A DNA stretch of 64,000 nt from Escherichia phage vB_ESM-pEJ01, in sequence record OP114734.1. One strand, written 5' to 3'. Position 1 is the stretch's first letter. Each line of letters opens with the position of its first letter. The notes beneath the pieces were generated by a model that worked only from the letters and a program-made list of their open reading frames with translations, was not told the DNA's origin and made no database searches. Shown here piece by piece: positions 10,924 to 64,000 of this stretch. The position numbers and the translations under genes are program-made.

Positions 10924-11911
10924 TGAAAATAGTGTGATCTATCGCTCAATCATTACTAGTAAATTCAGAACGGAAAAACTTCTGAATTTCTATAATTCTG
11001 TAGGCGATGGGGCAAATCAAATTACAATTTATGGAACGTTTGGACGTTCGGAGCCGTGGTCAGAAAACGAAAAAGAGGTGGGCTTTGCCCCACCTTATCC
11101 GACCGATTCAACGGCTGGTGTTGTTGATATGTGGACCCATATGATGGGGGCGGTTAAGATTAACAAATCACTTCTTGATGCGGTTATCCCTCGTAAAGAT
11201 TGGGGTGATACCGGACAGGATAACCCGCGCACATTCTTTATCAATGACATTGTTGTTGTCAACTCAGCACCATATAACAGAACTGATGTTGGTAGCGGCT
11301 GGATGGTGTATCGCGTAACCGATGTTCCTGATCGCGGTTACTGCTCGATTTCAAGCATTGACGCTAAAGTAGAGTGTTTGAAGTTGGGCGGAAAGTGGAC
11401 ACCCACGCATGAATCAATTGCGCCACCTGTAGGAAAGGGCGATTCTATTGATATGGGTGATGGGTATCGTTGGGAATATCTGTACACAATTCCACCTGAT
11501 GCGGCGATCAACCGTTGCACCAATGAACATATTGTTGTACCGTTCCCCGATGAACTGCGACAAGATCCGGCGCGTTGGGGATATGATAATGTGATCACCT
11601 GGTATAATGACTATAATCTGCTTTATCGGCTGAAAGTAGTAACTTTGCGTTTTCAGGCTTATATGGACTCTGCGCAATTCCCAACTACCGCGTTAGTGGG
11701 TAATACTGGTTTCCGTCAGTTAAGCATTATCCTTAACCCATTGGAAAAGAAAGCACGCCCTAGCGATCCAGACGTTAAAGCGGTTCAAGATAAGTACCGT
11801 CCGCAAGACTTAGAGCCACACTCAGGCGAAATGATCTACATGGAAAACCGACAACCTATCGTTCGGTCATTAGATCAAACAGAACTTGTTTCTGTATTGT
11901 TTGAGTTCTAA
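10916..11911 (+). CDS. 8: baseplate wedge protein gp8
   Basis: 331 aa; synteny; overlaps gene 7 stop. Confidence 0.9.
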   Translation: MANENSVIYRSIITSKFRTEKLLNFYNSVGDGANQITIYGTFGRSEPWSENEKEVGFAPPYPTDSTAGVVDMWTHMMGAVKINKSLLDAVIPRKDWGDTGQDNPRTFFINDIVVVNSAPYNRTDVGSGWMVYRVTDVPDRGYCSISSIDAKVECLKLGGKWTPTHESIAPPVGKGDSIDMGDGYRWEYLYTIPPDAAINRCTNEHIVVPFPDELRQDPARWGYDNVITWYNDYNLLYRLKVVTLRFQAYMDSAQFPTTALVGNTGFRQLSIILNPLEKKARPSDPDVKAVQDKYRPQDLEPHSGEMIYMENRQPIVRSLDQTELVSVLFEF

Positions 11912-11925
11912 GTGTATGATTTAAA

Positions 11926-11952
11926 AGCCAATTCGAGAGAGTTGGCTTTTTC
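11926..11952 (+). terminator. intrinsic terminator after gene 8
   Basis: hairpin AGCCAA...TTGGCT followed by TTTTT. Confidence 0.6.
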
Positions 11953-11963
11953 CATTTTTGGTG

Positions 11964-11991
11964 TTGACAATCTTATTTGGTAAGGTATAAT
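11964..11991 (+). promoter_or_regulatory. sigma70-like early promoter (TTGACA-N16-TATAAT) driving the inserted cassette
   Basis: -35 TTGACA 11964-11969, -10 TATAAT 11986-11991; leader begins ACACACAT as in the PeSL units at 52-60 kb. Confidence 0.6.
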
Positions 11992-12020
11992 ACACACATC
12001 TAAACAACGGAGGATAAATT

Positions 12021-12278
12021 ATGGCACGTCGTAAATTTACAGATAATTGTGAAGCAATTCAGGTATCCCCTTGCGGTTGGGATGTGATCGCGAATGGTGA
12101 AAAGATCGGAGAGATCATCGATCATACTCATTCATCACTAGCCGATTATACCGATGAACTATGGGAGGGTATCAACTTCATGAATGACACTAAACGATTC
12201 AAGACTATTGATGAAGCTATACATTTTGTGTATAATCCAACTTTCGGTATGTGGAGTGATAGAAAATGGCACGCGTAA
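12021..12278 (+). CDS. hypothetical protein (85 aa)
   Basis: ATG with RBS GGAGGA; first gene of the inserted cassette. Confidence 0.5.
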   Translation: MARRKFTDNCEAIQVSPCGWDVIANGEKIGEIIDHTHSSLADYTDELWEGINFMNDTKRFKTIDEAIHFVYNPTFGMWSDRKWHA

Positions 12279-12598
12279 ATATTAAATTGCATTACACAAT
12301 GAATAAAGCTAAGTTCCCAATGCAAAAGCATTACTATGGTCTACGTGCACAAGATCCTAAACTCTATGGTACTCATTGGTTTTGTAAACATGATAACCAA
12401 TGGCACACATACGAAGAAATGCACGAGATGATGAAACAGGGTATTGAATTTAGTTATTCTAATTATGACCATCGTATAACTTGCATTCGAAAATTGAAAC
12501 GATGGATTCGTAAGAATCCGCAATTTAAAAACTTTGTGTTCTTTATGTCTCATACTTATCTGGGGCATAGCGTTACCGTAACAGCAAAGGTTAAATAA
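12266..12598 (+). CDS. hypothetical protein (110 aa)
   Basis: overlaps upstream ORF by 13 nt and downstream ATG by TAATG, suggesting translational coupling. Confidence 0.5.
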   Translation: MARVNIKLHYTMNKAKFPMQKHYYGLRAQDPKLYGTHWFCKHDNQWHTYEEMHEMMKQGIEFSYSNYDHRITCIRKLKRWIRKNPQFKNFVFFMSHTYLGHSVTVTAKVK

Positions 12599-13437
12599 TG
12601 GCACGACTTTCTAAACAAGAACAAAAATTACACGACCGAGCAATGGAGTTGATTAATTCAGATCGTCCATTGACATTTGAAGAAAAAGAATTTTGCTATA
12701 ATAACTATCATGGCGATGGGCTAGGTGGTTCCGGTGCATTCTTTACCCCAGAATGGCTTGCCTGGGATTTTACCATTGACGCACACTGCACAGGAAAAGT
12801 ATTAGATCTTTGTGCTGGGATCGGTCGCTTATCTTTTTGTATGTTACATCGTTGTAAGCCAGAAAAGATCGTATGCGTCGAACTCAATCCAGAATTTGCG
12901 CGGATTGGCAAGAGACTATTACCGGAGGCAGAATGGATCACCAGCGATGTATTCGAATTTGAGTCAAACGAAAAATTCGATGTGGTGATCAGCAATCCAC
13001 CTTTCGGGAAAATCAATACAACCAACACAAAGGATGTATTTGAGTACACTGGCGGCGAATTTGAATTTAAGGTTATGACATTAGGCCAGAAGTTTGCCGA
13101 TGTTGGCTATTTTATTGTTCCTGTGGGTTCCGCTGGTTTTGCTTATTCCGGCAGACCTTATTATGACGGGACCATGAAGTCTAATAAATATATAAAATGG
13201 AGCAAACAAACTGGTTTGGTGACTTATGCCGGATGTGGGATTGATACATCAATCTATCGCGATGAATGGCACAGTACCAACGTTTTAACAGAAGTGGTTG
13301 AGGTTCGGTATTACGAGAAAGAAGCCGTAGAAGCGCCTAAATCACGCCCTAACGAACAAATAGAAGAAAGTAAGGAGATTACCTTACCGAAACAGGAAAG
13401 CGAGTCTTGGACGCTCTCAGATTTGTTTGACATTTAA
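12598..13437 (+). CDS. putative N6-adenine DNA methyltransferase, gamma-class motif order
   Basis: FFTP motif, then AdoMet motif I VLDLCAGIGRL, then catalytic NPPF about 60 aa later. Confidence 0.7.
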   Translation: MARLSKQEQKLHDRAMELINSDRPLTFEEKEFCYNNYHGDGLGGSGAFFTPEWLAWDFTIDAHCTGKVLDLCAGIGRLSFCMLHRCKPEKIVCVELNPEFARIGKRLLPEAEWITSDVFEFESNEKFDVVISNPPFGKINTTNTKDVFEYTGGEFEFKVMTLGQKFADVGYFIVPVGSAGFAYSGRPYYDGTMKSNKYIKWSKQTGLVTYAGCGIDTSIYRDEWHSTNVLTEVVEVRYYEKEAVEAPKSRPNEQIEESKEITLPKQESESWTLSDLFDI

Positions 13438-13441
13438 TTAT

Positions 13442-13467
13442 AAGCCGTCCTTGTGGGCGGCTTTTTT
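13442..13467 (+). terminator. intrinsic terminator after the methyltransferase cassette
   Basis: hairpin AAGCCGTCC-TTGT-GGGCGGCTT followed by TTTTT. Confidence 0.65.
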
Positions 13468-13477
13468 GTATGTATTT

Positions 13478-13485
13478 TATAAATA
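13478..13485 (+). promoter_or_regulatory. T4-type late promoter TATAAATA upstream of gene 9
   Basis: exact TATAAATA 28 nt upstream of the gene 9 ATG. Confidence 0.55.
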
Positions 13486-13512
13486 ATACATCATAACATG
13501 AGGAATTAAACA

Positions 13513-14367
13513 ATGGCACAAGTTCCAAAGAAAAGAATAGACACAGGTACTGTCGGCAATCCATCGACTGGCGATATCTTATATGATGGCGGTAATAAAA
13601 TTAACGATAACTTTGATTCAATATATGACGCATTTGCTGATCAGCGGTTTAAAGACGTAGACCACGGCGTGGGAAGAATGGTTATTCATGCAACCGGATA
13701 CTATCAGAAGCATCCACGTCAAAGCTACGCTGGTTCCGCTGTTGAGATTGGGAGTCTACACGATATCGATACAACTCAAGGCGCACTTATTGCTATTCTA
13801 CCTAAAGCAAAGGTCGGTGAGGGTGTTGTATTCATAAATAGTAACGGTAGCCTTTCAACGACGACACCGCTCAATATTCGAACTCAAGCAGGTGATTCTA
13901 TTAGCGGTTATTCCGGTGATGCTACAATAACACAACCATTTTCAAAAGTCACTGTTTGGTGTACTGCCGTTGAAGGTAGTCGCGTAACATGGCGATTGGG
14001 TATTGAAAGTATGTTTACCGATACAACAACGCCATTAGATAAAACAGTTAACGTAACTGGAGTAGCAACAAACGTTGCTATTGCCGCAAAAACAGAATAT
14101 GTTTCCATCAAATTATTAACTACCGCTAGCAATACATCCGGTTCAAAAATGCGTTCAAGTGAAACGCTACTGATGATTGATTCTAAAGCCGGAAAAGTTT
14201 ATGCGACGGAATATGCAGTTTTGCAGAAGACAGAAGATGAACTATACACGGTTCGTTATTTCATCGGTTCCGGCGATAAAGTATATGCAGAGTATAAGGC
14301 TACTGGCGAAAATATTCGTTTAGCAGTTAAAGCCGTAGACACTATTAAAATCGGGGTTGCTACATGA
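13513..14367 (+). CDS. 9: baseplate long-tail-fibre socket protein gp9
   Basis: 284 aa; synteny 8-(insert)-9-10-11-12; N-terminal G.GD.L..GG.KINDNF motif shared with gp10. Confidence 0.85.
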   Translation: MAQVPKKRIDTGTVGNPSTGDILYDGGNKINDNFDSIYDAFADQRFKDVDHGVGRMVIHATGYYQKHPRQSYAGSAVEIGSLHDIDTTQGALIAILPKAKVGEGVVFINSNGSLSTTTPLNIRTQAGDSISGYSGDATITQPFSKVTVWCTAVEGSRVTWRLGIESMFTDTTTPLDKTVNVTGVATNVAIAAKTEYVSIKLLTTASNTSGSKMRSSETLLMIDSKAGKVYATEYAVLQKTEDELYTVRYFIGSGDKVYAEYKATGENIRLAVKAVDTIKIGVAT

Positions 14368-16166
14368 AACAATTAATTAATATCGGTGACGTTGTTGATG
14401 ACGGTACAGGTGATTATCTAAGAAAAGGTGGTCAAAAGATTAATGACAACTTTTCTGAACTTTATACTAAGCTGGGGGATGGTGATATCCCTCATGCATC
14501 CGGCGCGTGGAAAACTCACACACAACCAGTATTAAAACCAAATTTTGGTGATGCATGGGCGATTAATACAACGAACAACGCTGTTTCTGTTGAATTGCCT
14601 AAAGGAAGCGCGAGTGATTATAATAAAACAATTAAACTTCGTGATGTTTGGCGCTCATGGGCTGCACATAACGTAACGTTGAAGCCAGCACAAGGTGATA
14701 CCATTAAGGGGTCTCCAATCGACCGTGAGTTGTATAAAGATTTCATGGATGTTGAATTGGTTTATTGTGCGCCCGGACGTTGGGAATATGTCGAAAATAA
14801 ACGAGTAGATACTATCACCACTTCCGATTTAAGCACAGTCGCTAAGGAAGTTTATATTGCAACCGAAGGACAAACAGACTTCCCTAATGTGTTTGGTTCC
14901 AATACTTACAATATTCGAAATGTTGAAGTGTATTATCGCGGTAACTTGCTTTATTATGGCAAGGATTTAACCGATGATTCTAACTATGGTTCAATCGGTG
15001 AAAACGGTGATATTGTTCCTCTTGACGGTAAAAGCATTAAATTACGCTTCCCTTGTTCGGCGGGTGATACCATTCAAATCATCACTTATATGGACGGTAT
15101 CGCATCCTTCCGGTCAAGCTATATTACTCATACAATCCGCGTTTATGAAACAGGAATGACCACTTTGGAATCCATCCCAGGTGAAGTTTGGGTCGGTGAA
15201 CTTGCTAATAAGAAAGAGTTTACTAATGCTGAATTAGGCGTAAGTAAGCGAGATCTTATTAATCCAAATTCATTTGAATTGCTGATCAACGGCACACAAA
15301 TGATTAAAGCGGGTGATGCGGATTTACCTTCCTTTATTTGTGAAGGTGCTGACGGTGAAACGGAAGAAACCTGCGTACTTGCTGGCGGTCAATGGGTGGA
15401 ATCTGGTGAAGATTATTCATTAATGTTTGACGAAAACAGCGTGGTGACTGGTATTAAATTATCTAAAGCACTAGATAACAGAGACACTATCACAATTCGC
15501 TGGTTTAATAATGATATCGGAACATTAATGGAATGGGACGGTGTAGGCGGTATTAAAGAAAAAGCAGATAAAATTTATCTTAATAACGAAGATGAAGTTA
15601 CTCTGACAAATCGAATTGAATATACCGATTTCCAGAATCCAAGCCAAGCAACTAAACGCCCAATGGAAGATTATACAGGTCGTGTGATGGATATCTATTC
15701 CATCTTTGATATTTTCCATCCTATAGGCACAATTTATGAAAACGCGCATAACCCAGCTAACCCGGCGACATATATGGGAATTGGTACATGGGTACGTTAT
15801 GCGGAAGGAGAATTTCTGGCTGGTTGGTCTTCTGACGCAAGCGATCAAAACTTCGCACTAAACAACAACGATCTTGATACACATGGTCAACCTACACACA
15901 CCGCAGGTGGTAACGGTGGTGATGTTGCATACCAGATCAAGAAAAATATGATTCCTGAATTACAGAGCAACGATCGAGTTCTTGTAAAAGATGATAACGG
16001 AAATATTATTATCGGTGGTTGTCAGGTAGACCCTGATGCAGTAGGTCCAGCGTTTACCAAATATCGAGAAGATAATGTTAAAGTTAATCAGGGAAATACC
16101 GATCCATCAATGATGGGTATTCTTCCTCCATACAGAACTGTCTATCGTTGGCTAAGGGTAGGTTAA
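14364..16166 (+). CDS. 10: baseplate wedge / short-tail-fibre attachment protein gp10
   Basis: 600 aa (T4 gp10 about 602 aa); synteny; ATGA overlap with gene 9. Confidence 0.9.
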   Translation: MKQLINIGDVVDDGTGDYLRKGGQKINDNFSELYTKLGDGDIPHASGAWKTHTQPVLKPNFGDAWAINTTNNAVSVELPKGSASDYNKTIKLRDVWRSWAAHNVTLKPAQGDTIKGSPIDRELYKDFMDVELVYCAPGRWEYVENKRVDTITTSDLSTVAKEVYIATEGQTDFPNVFGSNTYNIRNVEVYYRGNLLYYGKDLTDDSNYGSIGENGDIVPLDGKSIKLRFPCSAGDTIQIITYMDGIASFRSSYITHTIRVYETGMTTLESIPGEVWVGELANKKEFTNAELGVSKRDLINPNSFELLINGTQMIKAGDADLPSFICEGADGETEETCVLAGGQWVESGEDYSLMFDENSVVTGIKLSKALDNRDTITIRWFNNDIGTLMEWDGVGGIKEKADKIYLNNEDEVTLTNRIEYTDFQNPSQATKRPMEDYTGRVMDIYSIFDIFHPIGTIYENAHNPANPATYMGIGTWVRYAEGEFLAGWSSDASDQNFALNNNDLDTHGQPTHTAGGNGGDVAYQIKKNMIPELQSNDRVLVKDDNGNIIIGGCQVDPDAVGPAFTKYREDNVKVNQGNTDPSMMGILPPYRTVYRWLRVG

Positions 16167-52907: not shown

Positions 52908-53426
52908 TTAGTTATTTTTTAATTGTTCATCTTGCAATAATGCAATCACATGCTGGCGATGCTCTTCTGATTGAGGCACACCAAAAAAGTTTGTTTTGTA
53001 GAAATACTCTAATCGGTCTTCTCGTGTGCTCTCTTCCATCATGATCGCGGGTAGTCCGAGATTTCGGAAACGTCGCTTTTCTGCTGGCGTAAAATCACTG
53101 TAATACAACATAGAATCATCATTACCAGCAATGCTAAACTCATCCTTCATGAAAGAGAATATTGCGTTTAAACGCTGTTTACCGTCCACGATTTCGATCT
53201 CATAGCGAGAGCCATCATCAATCTTAGCCATTGCGATAGAGCCTACCGGAAAATCATTAATCATGTTTTCGATAAACATACGTTTGTTTTCGGTGTCCCA
53301 TACCAAAGGACGCTGATAATCTGGGTTCATGTTGATATAGCCATCTTCTAACCATGCCTCATAAACAGAGATGACAAAGTTTTTAGTATTGGTATAGTAA
53401 CGGCGTTTAGGCGTTAAACGGTTCAT
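52908..53426 (-). CDS. DUF262 / ParB-like nuclease-domain protein
   Basis: motifs NPDYQRPLVWD and VDGKQRLNA (DGQQR-type); start moved to ATG at 53426 (RBS AGGAG), 1 nt after the upstream stop. Confidence 0.65.
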   Translation of the reverse strand: MNRLTPKRRYYTNTKNFVISVYEAWLEDGYINMNPDYQRPLVWDTENKRMFIENMINDFPVGSIAMAKIDDGSRYEIEIVDGKQRLNAIFSFMKDEFSIAGNDDSMLYYSDFTPAEKRRFRNLGLPAIMMEESTREDRLEYFYKTNFFGVPQSEEHRQHVIALLQDEQLKNN

Positions 53427-53427
53427 G

Positions 53428-53760
53428 TTATAGTCTCCTGAATGGATCATCACGTAAATCAATATCTTTTAAGAACTCATCCCATGAATGGCGGATATTA
53501 TTCTTAATTCTCCAGATAAGCGAAGGGATTGAACGCTCTCCCATCTGGAAGTATGGATCATATGATCCGTATGCCCAATATGCTACTACAATTCCGCAAT
53601 CAGTGCAATAGTATTCTATCTCGCTTGCTGGCGACCAAAGTCCATCAATATGATCACGGATCTTGCTTTCAATGTTATGACTATGGCAATCAGGGCAACG
53701 GATGCAATGACCTTGTTTGTCATAATTTGACGTTAGCGAATACTTAAACAATCTCATCAT
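53428..53760 (-). CDS. Zn-ribbon protein (110 aa)
   Basis: CIRCPDC...H and CTDCG cysteine pairs; start overlaps upstream stop by 4 nt. Confidence 0.6.
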   Translation of the reverse strand: MMRLFKYSLTSNYDKQGHCIRCPDCHSHNIESKIRDHIDGLWSPASEIEYYCTDCGIVVAYWAYGSYDPYFQMGERSIPSLIWRIKNNIRHSWDEFLKDIDLRDDPFRRL

Positions 53761-54473
53761 AGATCCTTATTGGCTTCAAATACTGCCTTTGCGAATCCTC
53801 GCGGGGTAAGTGACCTGATAGTCTTTGTTCTGGTTCCTTTCCCGCCTAGCTTAGAATGCTGTTTACTGTACCCTTTATTAATCGGCAACGGTTTCTTTTC
53901 TGGCATTATAAAGCCTTGTCCGGTCCATAAGCAAGTCTTTTTCGGGTACATATCACGGGCGGCAATATACTCAGGAAACGTAGGATGTATATCATCTTCC
54001 GGCAAATAACCGCCATATTCCCACGGGTGGAACATGTAATCAGGCTTACGCCACATGCTAGAGATAACGCTTACAGGATTCTCTATCATGTAGGGAACTC
54101 CTAGCCATTCACCCAAATAAGCGGTTATTTTAGCTGCCCGTACATCATGAACTTGAATCAACGGTCCTTGTTCTAGTTTCTTTCGTTCAAAGTGCGCAGC
54201 GCCACTAACAGCTAAATTGGTGCACGGTGGGAATGCAAAGATAATATCCGGTTTCCCCCATTCAAGGTCCATTGCTCTTTCCAGCCAGTTCAAATCAATC
54301 CAGGTGTTTACATAGGTAATGTTTTGATGTTCAAATCGGGTATTATATTTTTTGTATGTACCGTGGTCGCCATCGTCAGCATTAAAGCAGATCACCTTAT
54401 GACCTGCTTTAGCCCATTCTAACCCCATTATCCCCGATCCGTCAAAGTTGCAGAATATTAATTTTTGTTTCAC
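53757..54473 (-). CDS. compact DNA C5-cytosine methyltransferase-like protein (no large target-recognition domain)
   Basis: motif I FCNFDGSGIMG, motif IV FAFPPCTNLAVSGA (Pro-Cys), motif VI MIENPVS, motif IX-like IRSLTPRGFAKA in canonical order; GTG start overlapping upstream TGA. Confidence 0.65.
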   Translation of the reverse strand: MKQKLIFCNFDGSGIMGLEWAKAGHKVICFNADDGDHGTYKKYNTRFEHQNITYVNTWIDLNWLERAMDLEWGKPDIIFAFPPCTNLAVSGAAHFERKKLEQGPLIQVHDVRAAKITAYLGEWLGVPYMIENPVSVISSMWRKPDYMFHPWEYGGYLPEDDIHPTFPEYIAARDMYPKKTCLWTGQGFIMPEKKPLPINKGYSKQHSKLGGKGTRTKTIRSLTPRGFAKAVFEANKDL

Positions 54474-60125: not shown

Positions 60126-60602
60126 TTATTTTTCTTGATGCTCGCGCTCGTACTTTTCGAAATAAAATTCTACTGGCTGGTCATGAATTGACAGCAAGCC
60201 AAAGCGTTTAGCCGCTCGCAATCCCATATTGCGCTGAATGTACTTCTGGAAGTTCTCGCGTATACACTTACGCCAGTATTCTAAGCCCATACAGCTTTTA
60301 TAAAGATTGCATTGCACACACGCCGGATTCATGTTATCAAGTATATCATGTTCCGGTTTATGCATTCCTACAACCTTATACTTCCACGATCCATCATCAT
60401 TACGGGCAATTCGTCCATTTTCATCATAGACTACCTTTGAGCGTCGCAATACTGGTTTGATGTGGTCTGCGTGCCAGCGATCCCCTAGTTCCTCGCCACA
60501 ATAGGCACAACGTCCACCGTATTTCATTTTCAGGATCTGGCGTTGCTCTTTCTTTGACAATTTTTTAGGTTTAGGGGCTTTCGCCCCTTCATTATCACAC
60601 AT
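60126..60602 (-). CDS. HNH endonuclease-family protein
   Basis: C-x2-C...H-A-D-H...C-x2-C (CAYCGEE, WHADHIKP, CVQCN); ATG overlaps the ligase stop by 8 nt. Confidence 0.7.
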   Translation of the reverse strand: MCDNEGAKAPKPKKLSKKEQRQILKMKYGGRCAYCGEELGDRWHADHIKPVLRRSKVVYDENGRIARNDDGSWKYKVVGMHKPEHDILDNMNPACVQCNLYKSCMGLEYWRKCIRENFQKYIQRNMGLRAAKRFGLLSIHDQPVEFYFEKYEREHQEK

Positions 60603-62091
60603 CGAATACCTCTTTTACTGTATTTGCAGTGGTCTTGTCGTAGCGAATACGTTTGATGATTGGGAGAAATAAAGAGAACTCCGGTTCATCTTCTTTACGT
60701 GATTTGCTGCGGATATACCCGTTGCATGTCATCTCAATGACTTTTCCGATCAGGTTATGCCGATCAGCCCATAACATTTCTCGGTCAAGTTCATTTCGAC
60801 GATCGAACGGAATTACACGTTCAATACCATCATCACATTTTTCGGTTGTAGTGTCGGTTAATCCCGATCCGGTGTTAGTCATCATTCGTCCGCACGCACT
60901 ACGGACAGTAAAACCGCCTACCTTATTAGGATCTTTACTATGCGGATATACATCAACAATTTCAGCGTCGAAGTCAATCACTTCTTTAAATTTAACCTGG
61001 TCTTTACTACGGCGATCTTCAAATACACCATGTAAATTTTTAAGGATAATACCTTCTAAGCCCATGTTTACATAGCGATGATATACTTCGCGAGCTTCAT
61101 CGATATTGTTAACTACAGTGTTTTCGATTATCTGAACACGAGGATCGTTAAGTTCTTCAACAATCTGTTTTAGTTCTTCGAATCGATCTTTATATTGCTT
61201 AGTTGCTTTCTCGTTTCCGTAATACACATCACGGTCGATAACATCCCAGACAGTATAAACAATACATTGGGCTTCTTCTTTTGGAATAGTTCCTTTAAGT
61301 GATTTGTTGAGGATACCATTTCCGGTCTGACGATCTGCAACAACGGATTCTTTCACTGCTTCCGCTACTGGCGTTAATGGCATTTCCTCTTCTTCAAATA
61401 TCCATGACAGAGTACCATCATAAACGCTTTCAACGAAGTTCTGCGCTGGTGTTTGCGAAAGGGTAGGCATATATACCAATTCGCCATCTAGAACAATTCC
61501 ACGGCCTCGTAGACGCTCTAAAACCGCAAACAAATCATCAAGTCCCTGATAGGTATTACCTGAACGGGTATAGATTGCTAATGTTTCCCCGTCAATATCA
61601 GCCATACCACGAGCGCCATCGCTTTTAAGTTGTGCATACGCCGGATACTTGATATTAGCAATAGTCTTATCAGAACATGACGATGCAAGGTGGCACGGCT
61701 GCTGGGGGATCAGTTTCTTCCATACCTTGTTTGCAGTGGTAGCGGAACAACCGCATTCCAGATCACGATTCAGGACCATCATTGCAACTTTAGCATCATC
61801 TTCTGACAAGCAAGTCAGAGTATCGGTAACTAGCTGTAATGCTGCGTTACCAGTTACTTGACGCGTGGCAAGTTTATTTTTAAAGACCTGTAATGCACCG
61901 GATAAAGACAATACAGACGAATAACGCGATGGTTTATCGTATTTCTTTACGCCAAACGTAACCTGTTTGCAATATGCCAGATAAAAGCATTCTTTCAGAG
62001 TTTCATTGCTTGCGGATTCTTTCAGGATCTTTTCTTTCAGCGATGTTTTGTCGGTCGCTGCAAGCTGGTTAATGATATTAAGAATTGACAT
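60595..62091 (-). CDS. 30: ATP-dependent DNA ligase gp30
   Basis: start moved to ATG at 62091 (RBS GAGGTG; track used GTG); adenylation motif KSDGAR, RDLECG and LASS motifs match T4 DNA ligase. Confidence 0.9.
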   Translation of the reverse strand: MSILNIINQLAATDKTSLKEKILKESASNETLKECFYLAYCKQVTFGVKKYDKPSRYSSVLSLSGALQVFKNKLATRQVTGNAALQLVTDTLTCLSEDDAKVAMMVLNRDLECGCSATTANKVWKKLIPQQPCHLASSCSDKTIANIKYPAYAQLKSDGARGMADIDGETLAIYTRSGNTYQGLDDLFAVLERLRGRGIVLDGELVYMPTLSQTPAQNFVESVYDGTLSWIFEEEEMPLTPVAEAVKESVVADRQTGNGILNKSLKGTIPKEEAQCIVYTVWDVIDRDVYYGNEKATKQYKDRFEELKQIVEELNDPRVQIIENTVVNNIDEAREVYHRYVNMGLEGIILKNLHGVFEDRRSKDQVKFKEVIDFDAEIVDVYPHSKDPNKVGGFTVRSACGRMMTNTGSGLTDTTTEKCDDGIERVIPFDRRNELDREMLWADRHNLIGKVIEMTCNGYIRSKSRKEDEPEFSLFLPIIKRIRYDKTTANTVKEVFDV

Positions 62092-62557
62092 TTTCACCTC
62101 GTTTTGTTAAACGTTCACGAATATCATTGAGGATACTACAAAATTCCGATTCAGTCAATATAGTCTTTAACGGATCAGTTCCACCTATGCTATGACGTAA
62201 TTTCTTATTTCCGGTAGCGAGTAATGCTTTACAAAATTCTGGGTTATTCCGTGCCATCGTAACAAATGCCAGATGTACCAGTCTGTAATAATGCTCACTC
62301 ATTCGATGAATCTGGCGACCCTGAAAATATAACAGGTGATTCTCAATCTTTTCAGTTCTTCCGGTTCTTTTTGCTTTGCCACCGTGCATCAAAAAGATTT
62401 CTCTTTGTCTCTGGGGGTTCTTAAATCTTAGCCCCTGTAAAAATCCTTCTGTGCTGTTAATATCGCAACCAAATAAACGGAATGGTCTTTTATTGAAATT
62501 ACTCAATTCACCCGATGGATAAGGTCCACCCGCATAGATATCAATTTCAGAAGTCAT
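62078..62557 (-). CDS. NADAR (YbiA-like, DUF1768) domain protein
   Basis: IYAGGPYPSGELSNF, STEGFLQGLRF and ALLATG parallel the E. coli YbiA motifs (FSNF, TSEHYFQAQKF, ALLLAT); stop overlaps the ligase start. Confidence 0.75.
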   Translation of the reverse strand: MTSEIDIYAGGPYPSGELSNFNKRPFRLFGCDINSTEGFLQGLRFKNPQRQREIFLMHGGKAKRTGRTEKIENHLLYFQGRQIHRMSEHYYRLVHLAFVTMARNNPEFCKALLATGNKKLRHSIGGTDPLKTILTESEFCSILNDIRERLTKRGENVNS

Positions 62558-62710
62558 TGAAACTAATCTCGCTAATTAGAGAGAACGGATCATAATCGTC
62601 ATTAGGAATATCGATAGTAATCGAATGAGGATTTACCCATACACCAAACTGGCCTTCTTCGGTGAATACTTCGGTATGGATTTCGTGGATGTTTACATTC
62701 ATAGTTTTCA
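62551..62710 (-). CDS. possible small protein (53 aa)
   Basis: manually found ORF MKTMNVNIHEIH...; overlaps the NADAR start by 7 nt; weak support. Confidence 0.3.
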
Positions 62711-62794
62711 TAATAAAATTTCCTTAATAATCAATAACTTACAAAATCATATAGCCAAAATATAGGCGGGATTATTTCCCGCCGTTTAAAATCA

Positions 62795-63118: not shown

Positions 63119-63154
63119 AATTTTCTTACCTCTTCAATTCATCTCAATAGTAAA

Positions 63155-63766
63155 TTATTTATATTTCGCGACCTTTGGATTTCGCCGCAGACCGGAATGT
63201 ATTTGCGCTATACAACAATAAGAAACATTAAACATATCAGCTATAATTTGCTTCTTAACTTTTCCTTTAAGCCGCATTATTTCTTCGACTTGCGCATTTG
63301 TCAGTTTTGCCCGTGAGTGGTTTTCACCGACATTGTTATTGAGTCCAGTTCTAAATGAATGTCTCATATTTTCTAGTAAGGTTACTATTTCTAGATTCCA
63401 CACATAATTGCAGGTTTTTACACCATTGATGTGATTAACCTCAAGTCCGGTAACGTCTCCTAGAAATGCATTTGCTACAAGTCGATGTATCTTTTCGGCT
63501 TTAACTGAGATTTTACCATTGTCGTTTTGTTTTGACAATGTTGAATAATAATATCCATATCGGTCTAAAATTGGTTTTATTATTTTACCAGCACGTTTTT
63601 GTTTTACGAGCTTAATATTACCGGGAGAAACTTCTCTATAAAATTCGATACTTCGGTCAATAGATCTCAACCTACCATAATTAGAGATTTCATACCACGG
63701 ATAACCTACAGCTTGTCTCCATTCTTCCGGTGCTGGTAATATGATATTATCATCTTTTGTTTCCAT
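63155..63766 (-). CDS. HNH homing endonuclease (NUMOD4 / HNH / C-terminal HTH)
   Basis: WYEISNYGRLRS (NUMOD4-like), HRLVANAFLG...EVNHINGVKT (HNH), C-terminal helix-turn-helix-like NVSYCCIAQIHSG; start moved to ATG at 63766 (track used TTG). Confidence 0.75.
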   Translation of the reverse strand: METKDDNIILPAPEEWRQAVGYPWYEISNYGRLRSIDRSIEFYREVSPGNIKLVKQKRAGKIIKPILDRYGYYYSTLSKQNDNGKISVKAEKIHRLVANAFLGDVTGLEVNHINGVKTCNYVWNLEIVTLLENMRHSFRTGLNNNVGENHSRAKLTNAQVEEIMRLKGKVKKQIIADMFNVSYCCIAQIHSGLRRNPKVAKYK

Positions 63767-63768
63767 TG

Positions 63769-64000
63769 TCAACTGCCACCGTGAATTTCGACGATCTGCG
63801 CTGGAGTCAGCCCGTCCACATTAATCAGACTATCAAGCCCAAAACTACGGAAACCTTCAACTGCAATTTCATATACTGGCAAAGATGTTTCTGATTCTTT
63901 ACGCGGTTTTTCAACATTCGGAACTAACCACTTTTCGTATGTTTCGAAAGGCATCAGTGCCGGATCTCGCGTGGCGATCATATCTCGGACAGTACCATCT
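63769..64000 (-). CDS. partial CDS (C-terminal part; 5' end lies beyond the window)
   Basis: reading frame stays open to the window edge; identity not recognised. Confidence 0.4.
   Translation of the reverse strand, partial: DGTVRDMIATRDPALMPFETYEKWLVPNVEKPRKESETSLPVYEIAVEGFRSFGLDSLINVDGLTPAQIVEIHGGS

Follow-up and report, generated by a model that had tools for sequence, protein, structure and literature searches.

A probable ortholog of the T4 anti-DarTG1 protein AdfN (gp30.3), with a predicted NADAR fold, encoded next to the DNA ligase gene of Escherichia phage vB_ESM-pEJ01

The window, a stretch of 64,000 nucleotides of Escherichia phage vB_ESM-pEJ01 (OP114734.1), carries a gene which is very likely to be the Krischvirus ortholog of T4 gene 30.3 (adfN) and to encode a guanine-ADP-ribose hydrolase directed against the DarTG1 system. 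Membership of the gp30.3/AdfN family was indicated by a family-profile score above threshold, a modelled NADAR fold, the His residue that is the hallmark of phage NADARs and an intact C-terminal helix. For the AdfN proteins of T4 and T2, the activity of the enzyme and its necessity on DarTG1 hosts have been described, and the same role is predicted by analogy for the window protein, which we regard as an unexceptional ortholog of a counter-defence enzyme that is already known. The gp30.3/AdfN finding is already known biology, and the first reading of this gene, as a NADAR counter-defence factor that takes ADP-ribose off guanine in DarT-modified DNA, amounted to a rediscovery of published work; that reading finds support, by analogy, in the experiments on T4 gp30.3/AdfN combined with a family assignment by sequence and fold.

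The ORF of 159 codons was present exactly as described beforehand, with an ATG start and on the minus strand (Table 1), and its product contained all of the motifs that had been quoted, namely LSNF (residues 18 to 21), STEGFLQGLRF (residues 35 to 45) and ALLATG (residues 111 to 116). The reported overlap with the DNA ligase gene was also real, as the TAA stop codon of 30.3 (62080..62078) lies within the 5' end of the ligase gene. The ligase start is most likely the ATG at 62091..62089, which is preceded by a Shine-Dalgarno-like GAGGTG and gives an overlap of 14 nt, and the RefSeq record of phage JSE is annotated with the same overlap; an alternative GTG start at 62097 in the ORF list would make the overlap 20 nt. 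This arrangement suggests that one shared transcript is used for translation of both genes, and we infer that 30.3 is co-expressed with ligase. At the other end of the gene, the last 11 nt of a 54-aa ORF, its stop included, are shared with the start of 30.3. The overlaps and an upstream hairpin indicated that ligase, 30.3 and the 54-aa ORF lie closely packed in one direction as a single block, and the 54-aa ORF is probably the first gene of this transcription unit. The hairpin might mark the upstream boundary of the block; terminator-like sites were no more numerous in the hairpin scan than in shuffled sequences. A promoter scan upstream of the block detected nothing above the shuffle expectation and no convincing promoter.

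Table 1. Features of the window that bear on gene 30.3, and conserved residues of the predicted protein (nucleotide positions are those of the window; residue counts are from the 167-row alignment described in the text)
Feature	Position	Strand	Evidence or remark
adfN / gene 30.3 CDS, 159 aa, predicted single-domain NADAR-fold ADP-ribosylglycohydrolase, phage gp30.3 family	62078..62557	-
14-nt overlap of 30.3 3' end and DNA ligase 5' end, ATGTCAATTCTTAA	62078..62091	-	sequence; identical overlap annotated in JSE
Shine-Dalgarno-like GAGGTG for ligase, inside 30.3 CDS, 3 nt upstream of ATG 62091	62095..62100	-	sequence
Gene 30, ATP-dependent DNA ligase, neighbour	60595..62091	-	PF01068, E 2.8e-22; PHROG 114, E 1.3e-141
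54-aa ORF, phrog_15277, upstream of 30.3	62547..62711	-	also annotated in JSE, copy 98% identical
Terminator-like GC hairpin and T-run, between gene 31 and 54-aa ORF	62765..62783	-	sequence scan
Alt-like ADP-ribosyltransferase, 683 aa	50503..52554	-	PF03496
Alt-like ADP-ribosyltransferase paralog, 274 aa	49600..50424	-	PF03496
Ser	residue 19		Ser in 157/167 rows
Asn	residue 20		Asn in 159/167 rows
Glu	residue 37		Glu in 161/167 rows
Gln	residue 41		Gln in 155/167 rows
Lys	residue 63		Lys in 136/167 rows
His (KLRHSIGG), last strand	residue 122		His in 159/167 rows
Gly	residue 125		Gly in 158/167 rows

Comparison with profile libraries, which had been proposed as a check of NADAR membership, gave a divided result. 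The generic Pfam NADAR model PF08719 remained below its gathering threshold (16.7 versus 35.1 bits), but the protein matched PF08010 (Phage_30_3, bacteriophage protein GP30.3) with E = 9.5e-38 and 129.6 bits against a gathering cutoff of 36, residues 13 to 148 aligning with profile positions 2 to 138 of 138. A match to PHROG 652 (E = 5.5e-45) was also detected, and BLASTP aligned the protein with T4 gp30.3 at 38% identity over 151 aa (E 1e-28), colinear from end to end. The relationship to NADAR proteins emerged only when profiles and folds were compared. When a profile of 70 family members was compared with PDB sequences, the best match was E. coli YbiA (E 0.0013), followed by a Phytophthora NADAR (E 0.41), and these alignments ran through the SNF and E-x3-Q-x2-K motifs. 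NADAR membership is based on the fold and the gp30.3 family and not on the PF08719 score. The NCBIfam model NF053876 (DS32_2 NADAR family anti-phage protein) scored 14.2 bits against a cutoff of 240, and PADLOC gave no match for either the window protein or T4 gp30.3. The top match of a single-sequence PDB search, the D-alanine carrier-protein ligase DltA (7vhv; E 7e-4), with a weak echo in NCBIfam (E 0.16), was rejected as spurious, since the family profile favours YbiA and 8bau and the fold searches showed no similarity to adenylation domains. Domain fusions among 150 family representatives mostly involved unannotated hydrophobic N-terminal regions, with one Metallophos domain, one LRR domain and some tandem duplications, and none of these partners is informative for the window protein.

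The preliminary description had made its reading depend on the predicted structure, and a NADAR fold was found. An AlphaFold2 model built on the alignment of the 70 family members had a mean pLDDT of 95.5 and a pTM of 0.90, and a Foldseek search of the PDB with this model gave three matches with a probability of 1.00, all of them to NADAR proteins: 2b3w (YbiA), 8bau (PnNADAR with ADP-ribose) and 8bat (the DarG1-type NADAR of Geobacter lovleyi). As modelled, the protein has the YbiA fold of a helical core with small flanking beta hairpins. Residue conservation was examined in an alignment of the window protein, T4 gp30.3 and 160 proteins from two protein searches (167 aligned rows), 150 of the 160 being drawn from the 971 matches at E <=0.001 in a search of 1.84 billion cluster representatives. 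The window protein carries every one of the conserved residues in Table 1 and the S19-N20-F21 motif. Among 70 family representatives, N20, E37 and H122 did not vary at all and Q41 hardly varied. The residue at the position of the YbiA Glu and the DarG1 Asp is H122, the hallmark of phage gp30.3 proteins. The C-terminal helix is intact at residues 136 to 157 in the model and aligns with the T4 C terminus.

Homologs were detected in 1,509 phage records, in 1,502 of which they were near full length. A match with 95 to 100% identity was present in each of 59 Krischvirus records, the gp30.3 proteins of JSE-like Krischvirus phages being 97 to 100% identical to the window protein, and about 1,450 further records, with homologs of less than 60% identity, came from T4-like phages of Escherichia, Klebsiella, Acinetobacter, Aeromonas and Vibrio and in some cases from unrelated large phages. 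Krischviruses are RB49-like relatives of T4 that infect E. coli, and the 4 kb around the gene matched Krischvirus genomes, among them JSE, KFS-EC and ECD7, at 97 to 99% identity. A comparative-genomics study of 2022 had already listed NADAR domains in T4-like phages (PMC9503650).

NADAR proteins reverse the ADP-ribosylation of guanine catalysed by DarT1, and the catalytic Glu of YbiA-type proteins is replaced by Asp in DarT1-linked NADARs and by His in phage NADARs (Schuller et al., PMC11543638), the latter feature being defined also in PMC11125620. Activity of the T4 enzyme in vitro was described in 2024: gp30.3 hydrolysed guanosine-ADP-ribose but not thymidine-ADP-ribose and did not rescue cells from DarT1 (Toxins; PMC11125620). 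The genetic role against DarTG1 followed in 2025, when resistance of T-even phages was mapped to gene 30.3, renamed adfN (Johannesman et al.; preprint, PMC11257639; Nat Commun, PMC11825919). On DarTG1 hosts, plating of T4 and T2 without adfN fell by about 4 logs (preprint, PMC11257639), and purified AdfN stripped ADP-ribose from DarT1-modified DNA (PMC11825919); T4 AdfN is thus described as a guanine-specific DNA ADP-ribosylglycohydrolase that is required for growth of T4 on DarTG1 hosts (PMC11825919; PMC11125620). Rescue was impaired by the E36A and K43A substitutions and by a C-terminal truncation mimicking RB69, a DarTG1-sensitive phage whose protein is without the C-terminal helix, indicating that this helix is needed for full activity (PMC11825919). 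Independent confirmation came from a transposon screen in which 30.3 insertions were lost on DarTG1 hosts only and the gene was dispensable on K-12. T4 AdfN is fully effective only during T-even infection, for which a further T-even protein is suspected as a cofactor, and it cannot stand in for DarG1 in uninfected cells (PMC11825919). Representatives of all NADAR families, the T4 enzyme included, also strip guanosine-ADP-ribose from RNA in vitro (PMC12945103).

By analogy, in infected E. coli with a DarTG1-type toxin-antitoxin, DarT1 would attach ADP-ribose to the N2 amino group of guanine in the phage DNA, and replication of the phage would be blocked. The phage enzyme would then bind the ADP-ribose, with Glu37 contacting the distal ribose and Arg44, in place of the usual Lys, contacting the diphosphate, a contact made by Lys50 in 8BAU, and His122 would serve as the phage-family counterpart of the catalytic Glu or Asp. 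Cleavage of the N-glycosidic bond between ribose and guanine would release ADP-ribose and restore a normal guanine, allowing replication to resume. In the literature searched, no paper joined Krischvirus with DarTG or RB49 with DarTG1.

The window protein shares with T4 gp30.3/AdfN the PF08010 domain, a single-domain NADAR core of the same size, the SNF, E-x3-Q and H-S-I-G motifs and the C-terminal helix, and both genes lie in the order gene 31 ... 30.3 ... gene 30 ... alt in T4-like myoviruses of E. coli. It differs in having Arg44 instead of the catalytic, phosphate-binding Lys43 and seven extra C-terminal residues, in the overlap of its gene with ligase without 30.1 and 30.2, and in residing in a phage with unmodified cytosine and no AdfA homolog. 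The DarT1-associated NADAR antitoxins (DarG1 and the BC4488 family, including G. lovleyi 8BAT and the E. coli C7 NADAR) have Asp on the last strand where the window protein has His122. In DarG1, additional elements at the N terminus form an electropositive channel (PMC12945103), whereas the window protein is a bare 159-aa core, and DarG1-type genes adjoin a DarT1 toxin gene, whereas the neighbours here are the 54-aa ORF and DNA ligase and the ADP-ribosyltransferases of the window are Alt-like PF03496 proteins. Lacking the Asp, the N-terminal extension and a linked DarT gene, the window protein is not a DarG1-type antitoxin. AdfN-Bas32 and AdfN-Bas60, from T5-like and Vequintavirinae phages, are likewise phage-encoded, guanine-specific NADARs that counter DarTG1, but these arose by separate acquisitions from other NADAR branches, are effective in uninfected cells as well and are not of the PF08010 type.

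Adjacency to ligase had been taken as a hint of function in DNA repair, and this hint did not hold. Genes 30.2 and 30.1 stand between 30.3 and gene 30 in T4, and an Acinetobacter phage has a 30.2 homolog (45% identity) between the 30.3 homolog and ligase. Within approximately 3.5 kb of the homolog, no ligase is annotated in either the Aeromonas T4-like phage Asfd_1 or Caulobacter phage CcrPW. Homologs of 30.1 and 30.2 were not detectable in Krischvirus, and it is owing to their absence that 30.3 runs directly into ligase. The adjacency is an inherited T4-type gene order, compacted here, and not a conserved functional coupling, because linkage of 30.3 to ligase is conserved only in part of the Straboviridae. 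Nor does the chemistry call for coupling of the two in repair: judging from the published reaction, NADAR enzymes give back an intact guanine in an unnicked strand, and ligase would not be needed mechanistically.

Modification of the phage DNA was also considered. RB49 DNA is unmodified (PMC4041780), and no ortholog of the gp42 hydroxymethylase was found in the JSE segments plus the window (the window standing in for the 70- to 125-kb region of JSE), the only weak match being to td (thymidylate synthase). A preprint proposed that T4 AdfN prefers hydroxymethylated DNA (PMC11257639), but the published version withdrew the idea of a DNA preference, as AdfN is still required by T4-GT7, whose cytosine is unmodified (PMC11825919). 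The possibility of using Krischvirus as a natural counter-example to a hydroxymethylcytosine preference is moot for this reason, and the presence of AdfN in a phage with unmodified DNA is to be expected rather than surprising. No homolog of AdfA/61.2 was found in the JSE segments plus the window. JSE carries a tk.4 macrodomain gene, a homolog of T4 AdfM (anti-DarTG2). As T4 AdfN needs T-even infection for its full effect and Krischvirus is without detectable homologs of 30.1, 30.2 and AdfA/61.2, the same dependence cannot be assumed for the window protein.

Counting against an AdfN role are the identity of only 38% to the characterised T4 protein, the subthreshold PF08719 score, the reliance of T4 AdfN on T-even infection for full effect, coupled with the lack of detectable 30.1, 30.2 and AdfA/61.2 homologs in Krischvirus, and the replacement of the phosphate-binding Lys by Arg, given that K95R of the E. 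coli C7 NADAR is non-protective in vivo. Arg44 aligns with the diphosphate-binding Lys43 of T4, so that the E-x3-Q-x2-K motif of the window protein retains E37 and Q41 with Arg at the Lys position; across the alignment this position is Lys in 152 of 167 rows and Arg in 10. The Arg is common to the other Krischvirus-like sequences, namely P0001, JSE and a metagenomic sequence of 69% identity (P0002), and it recurs in several other lineages and in a T4-like phage of Acinetobacter (47% identity). The nearest representative among the matches listed, P0013 (47%), has Lys, and this pattern of Arg in separate lineages indicated that the Lys-to-Arg switch is recurrent. A weak or inactive hydrolase, or one tuned to another DarT1 variant, another nucleic-acid ADP-ribose adduct or another cofactor context, would be a possible outcome of this substitution, and the failure of K95R to rescue cells from DarT1 (PMC11543638), the impairment of T4 K43A and the lack of 30.1, 30.2 and AdfA homologs in Krischvirus are all in its favour. 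We regard this outcome as unlikely, since Arg has the same positive charge, K95R does hydrolyse guanosine-ADP-ribose in vitro (PMC11543638) and even T4 K43A gives partial rescue (PMC11825919). Furthermore, retention of Arg in lineages 47 to 69% identical to the window protein, in which the other catalytic positions are invariant, and the near-identical matches in all 59 Krischvirus records speak for an enzyme that is functional and maintained by purifying selection. On these sequence comparisons, Arg44 is read as a tolerated natural variant which probably substitutes for Lys, with a minority chance of reduced or shifted activity.

It seems quite unlikely that the main substrate is something other than DarT1-modified DNA, such as RNA guanosine-ADP-ribose, soluble ADP-ribose-derived immune signals or by-products, or the adducts of the phage's own Alt/Mod enzymes. 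The in vitro activity of NADARs on RNA is consistent with such a substrate, as is the presence, approximately 10 kb downstream on the same strand, of two Alt-like ADP-ribosyltransferases, but sensitivity to DarTG1 was the only phenotype of 30.3 loss in T4, with no requirement for the gene on K-12, and the flanks that were surveyed showed no NAD-salvage genes. The two ADP-ribosyltransferases had been cited beforehand as context for a counter-defence role; both are indeed present and belong to PF03496, but they are Alt-like and not DarT-type, and nothing ties them to 30.3 beyond a comparative-genomics remark on co-expression. The T4-type Alt/Mod ADP-ribosyltransferases are protein- and RNA-directed enzymes rather than DarT-type DNA modifiers, and T4 Alt/Mod modify arginine in proteins, a linkage on which we know of no reported NADAR activity. 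A modB gene is also annotated in JSE. An activity of the YbiA/COG3236 type, in which an N-glycosidase would destroy reactive intermediates of the riboflavin pathway as metabolic housekeeping, is extremely improbable. The label "YbiA-like" in the preliminary description was imprecise, although the NADAR assignment stood, by fold and by PF08010 (gp30.3 family): the protein is only about 20% identical to E. coli YbiA (2B3W), and since it has His122 in place of the last-strand Glu by which the YbiA family is defined, it is not a member of that family. The roles of YbiA in swarming and riboflavin metabolism find no support for the window protein, no riboflavin genes were present in the annotated JSE segments or the surveyed parts of the window, and the direct ortholog has a demonstrated role on DNA-ADP-ribose.

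Identification of the window gene as an AdfN ortholog adds no new principle. By analogy with T4, the gene would explain one layer of phage resistance to DarTG1, a known defence of E. coli, and may be of use in host-range prediction for RB49/JSE-type phages, some of which are used in therapy. There is a small chance that the gp30.3 proteins of Krischvirus and the Acinetobacter phage, which have Arg and, in the case of Krischvirus, a genome without 30.1, 30.2, AdfA and cytosine modification, differ functionally from T4 AdfN, for example in having no need of a T-even cofactor or in acting against other DarT1 variants or on other ADP-ribosylated bases. If so, a comparison of Arg-type gp30.3 with T4 AdfN could reveal why T4 AdfN depends on infection.

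Comparison of the region around adfN, the gp30.3-family NADAR gene, with the related Krischvirus JSE detected a ~640-bp insertion (63142-63783) between gene 31 and gene 31.1, within which lies an endonuclease gene with NUMOD4 and HNH_3 domains. Of the Krischvirus records listed as the 25 best matches, no more than 11 covered this stretch, with a 4-kb query being covered to 98-100% in these records and to about 84% in the others. Such a patchy presence is that expected of a mobile homing endonuclease. At the ligase stop there is an 8-nt overlap with a second ORF for an HNH endonuclease, of which JSE also has a copy. The start of adfN is translationally overlapped with a 54-aa ORF, which was observed in the window and JSE and was not found at the examined loci of T4, Acinetobacter-phage, Aeromonas-phage and Caulobacter-phage.

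Features of the window in and around the ligase-adfN region
Feature	Coordinates	Strand	Family or location
Short ADP-ribosyltransferase paralog, 274 aa	49600..50424	minus	phrog_15144
Alt-like ADP-ribosyltransferase, full-length, 683 aa	50503..52554	minus	
184-aa ORF, GmrSD_N/DUF262 partial	52908..53462	minus	PF03235, phrog_1583
DNA methyltransferase-like ORF, GTG start	53757..54473	minus	phrog_757
Second HNH endonuclease ORF	60126..60602	minus	phrog_2118
54-aa ORF	62547..62711	minus	phrog_15277
NUMOD4 + HNH_3 endonuclease ORF	63155..63772	minus	inside insertion 63142-63783

The two ADP-ribosyltransferase genes adjoin each other, the shorter product comprising the catalytic part only in comparison to the Alt-like protein. 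Matches of the 184-aa ORF were limited to the N-terminal half of GmrSD_N/DUF262 and to positions 9-183 of the 417 positions of phrog_1583. A Type IV-restriction-like gene that has been shortened or divided may be represented by this ORF, in a phage whose DNA is unmodified. The methyltransferase-like ORF is distinct from dam, which is annotated elsewhere in JSE.

Fusions of gp30.3-type NADARs were detected among the homologs. Eight metagenomic proteins of alignment A4 (P0021, P0038, P0069, P0083, P0089, P0118, P0147 and P0160) carry strongly hydrophobic, poorly conserved N-terminal regions of about 310 aa, which look like membrane segments. In P0094 the fusion partner is a calcineurin-like phosphoesterase and in P0053 it consists of BspA-type LRRs, each being a single case; tandem NADAR duplications were observed in P0016 and P0019. 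A purely DNA-directed role is hard to reconcile with gp30.3-type NADARs that, as their sequences suggest, would be membrane tethered.

The Krischvirus genome also encodes a tk.4 macrodomain protein, the homolog of T4 AdfM; T4 AdfM is a reported anti-DarTG2 factor. The JSE stretches bearing on the anti-DarT genes are 1773-2228 of segment L009 (JSE 50001-70000) and 11295-15360 of segment L007 (JSE 1-50000). As no homolog of AdfA/61.2, 30.1, 30.2 or gp42 was detectable in the JSE segments examined and the window, the anti-DarT toolkit of Krischvirus appears to consist of AdfN and AdfM only.
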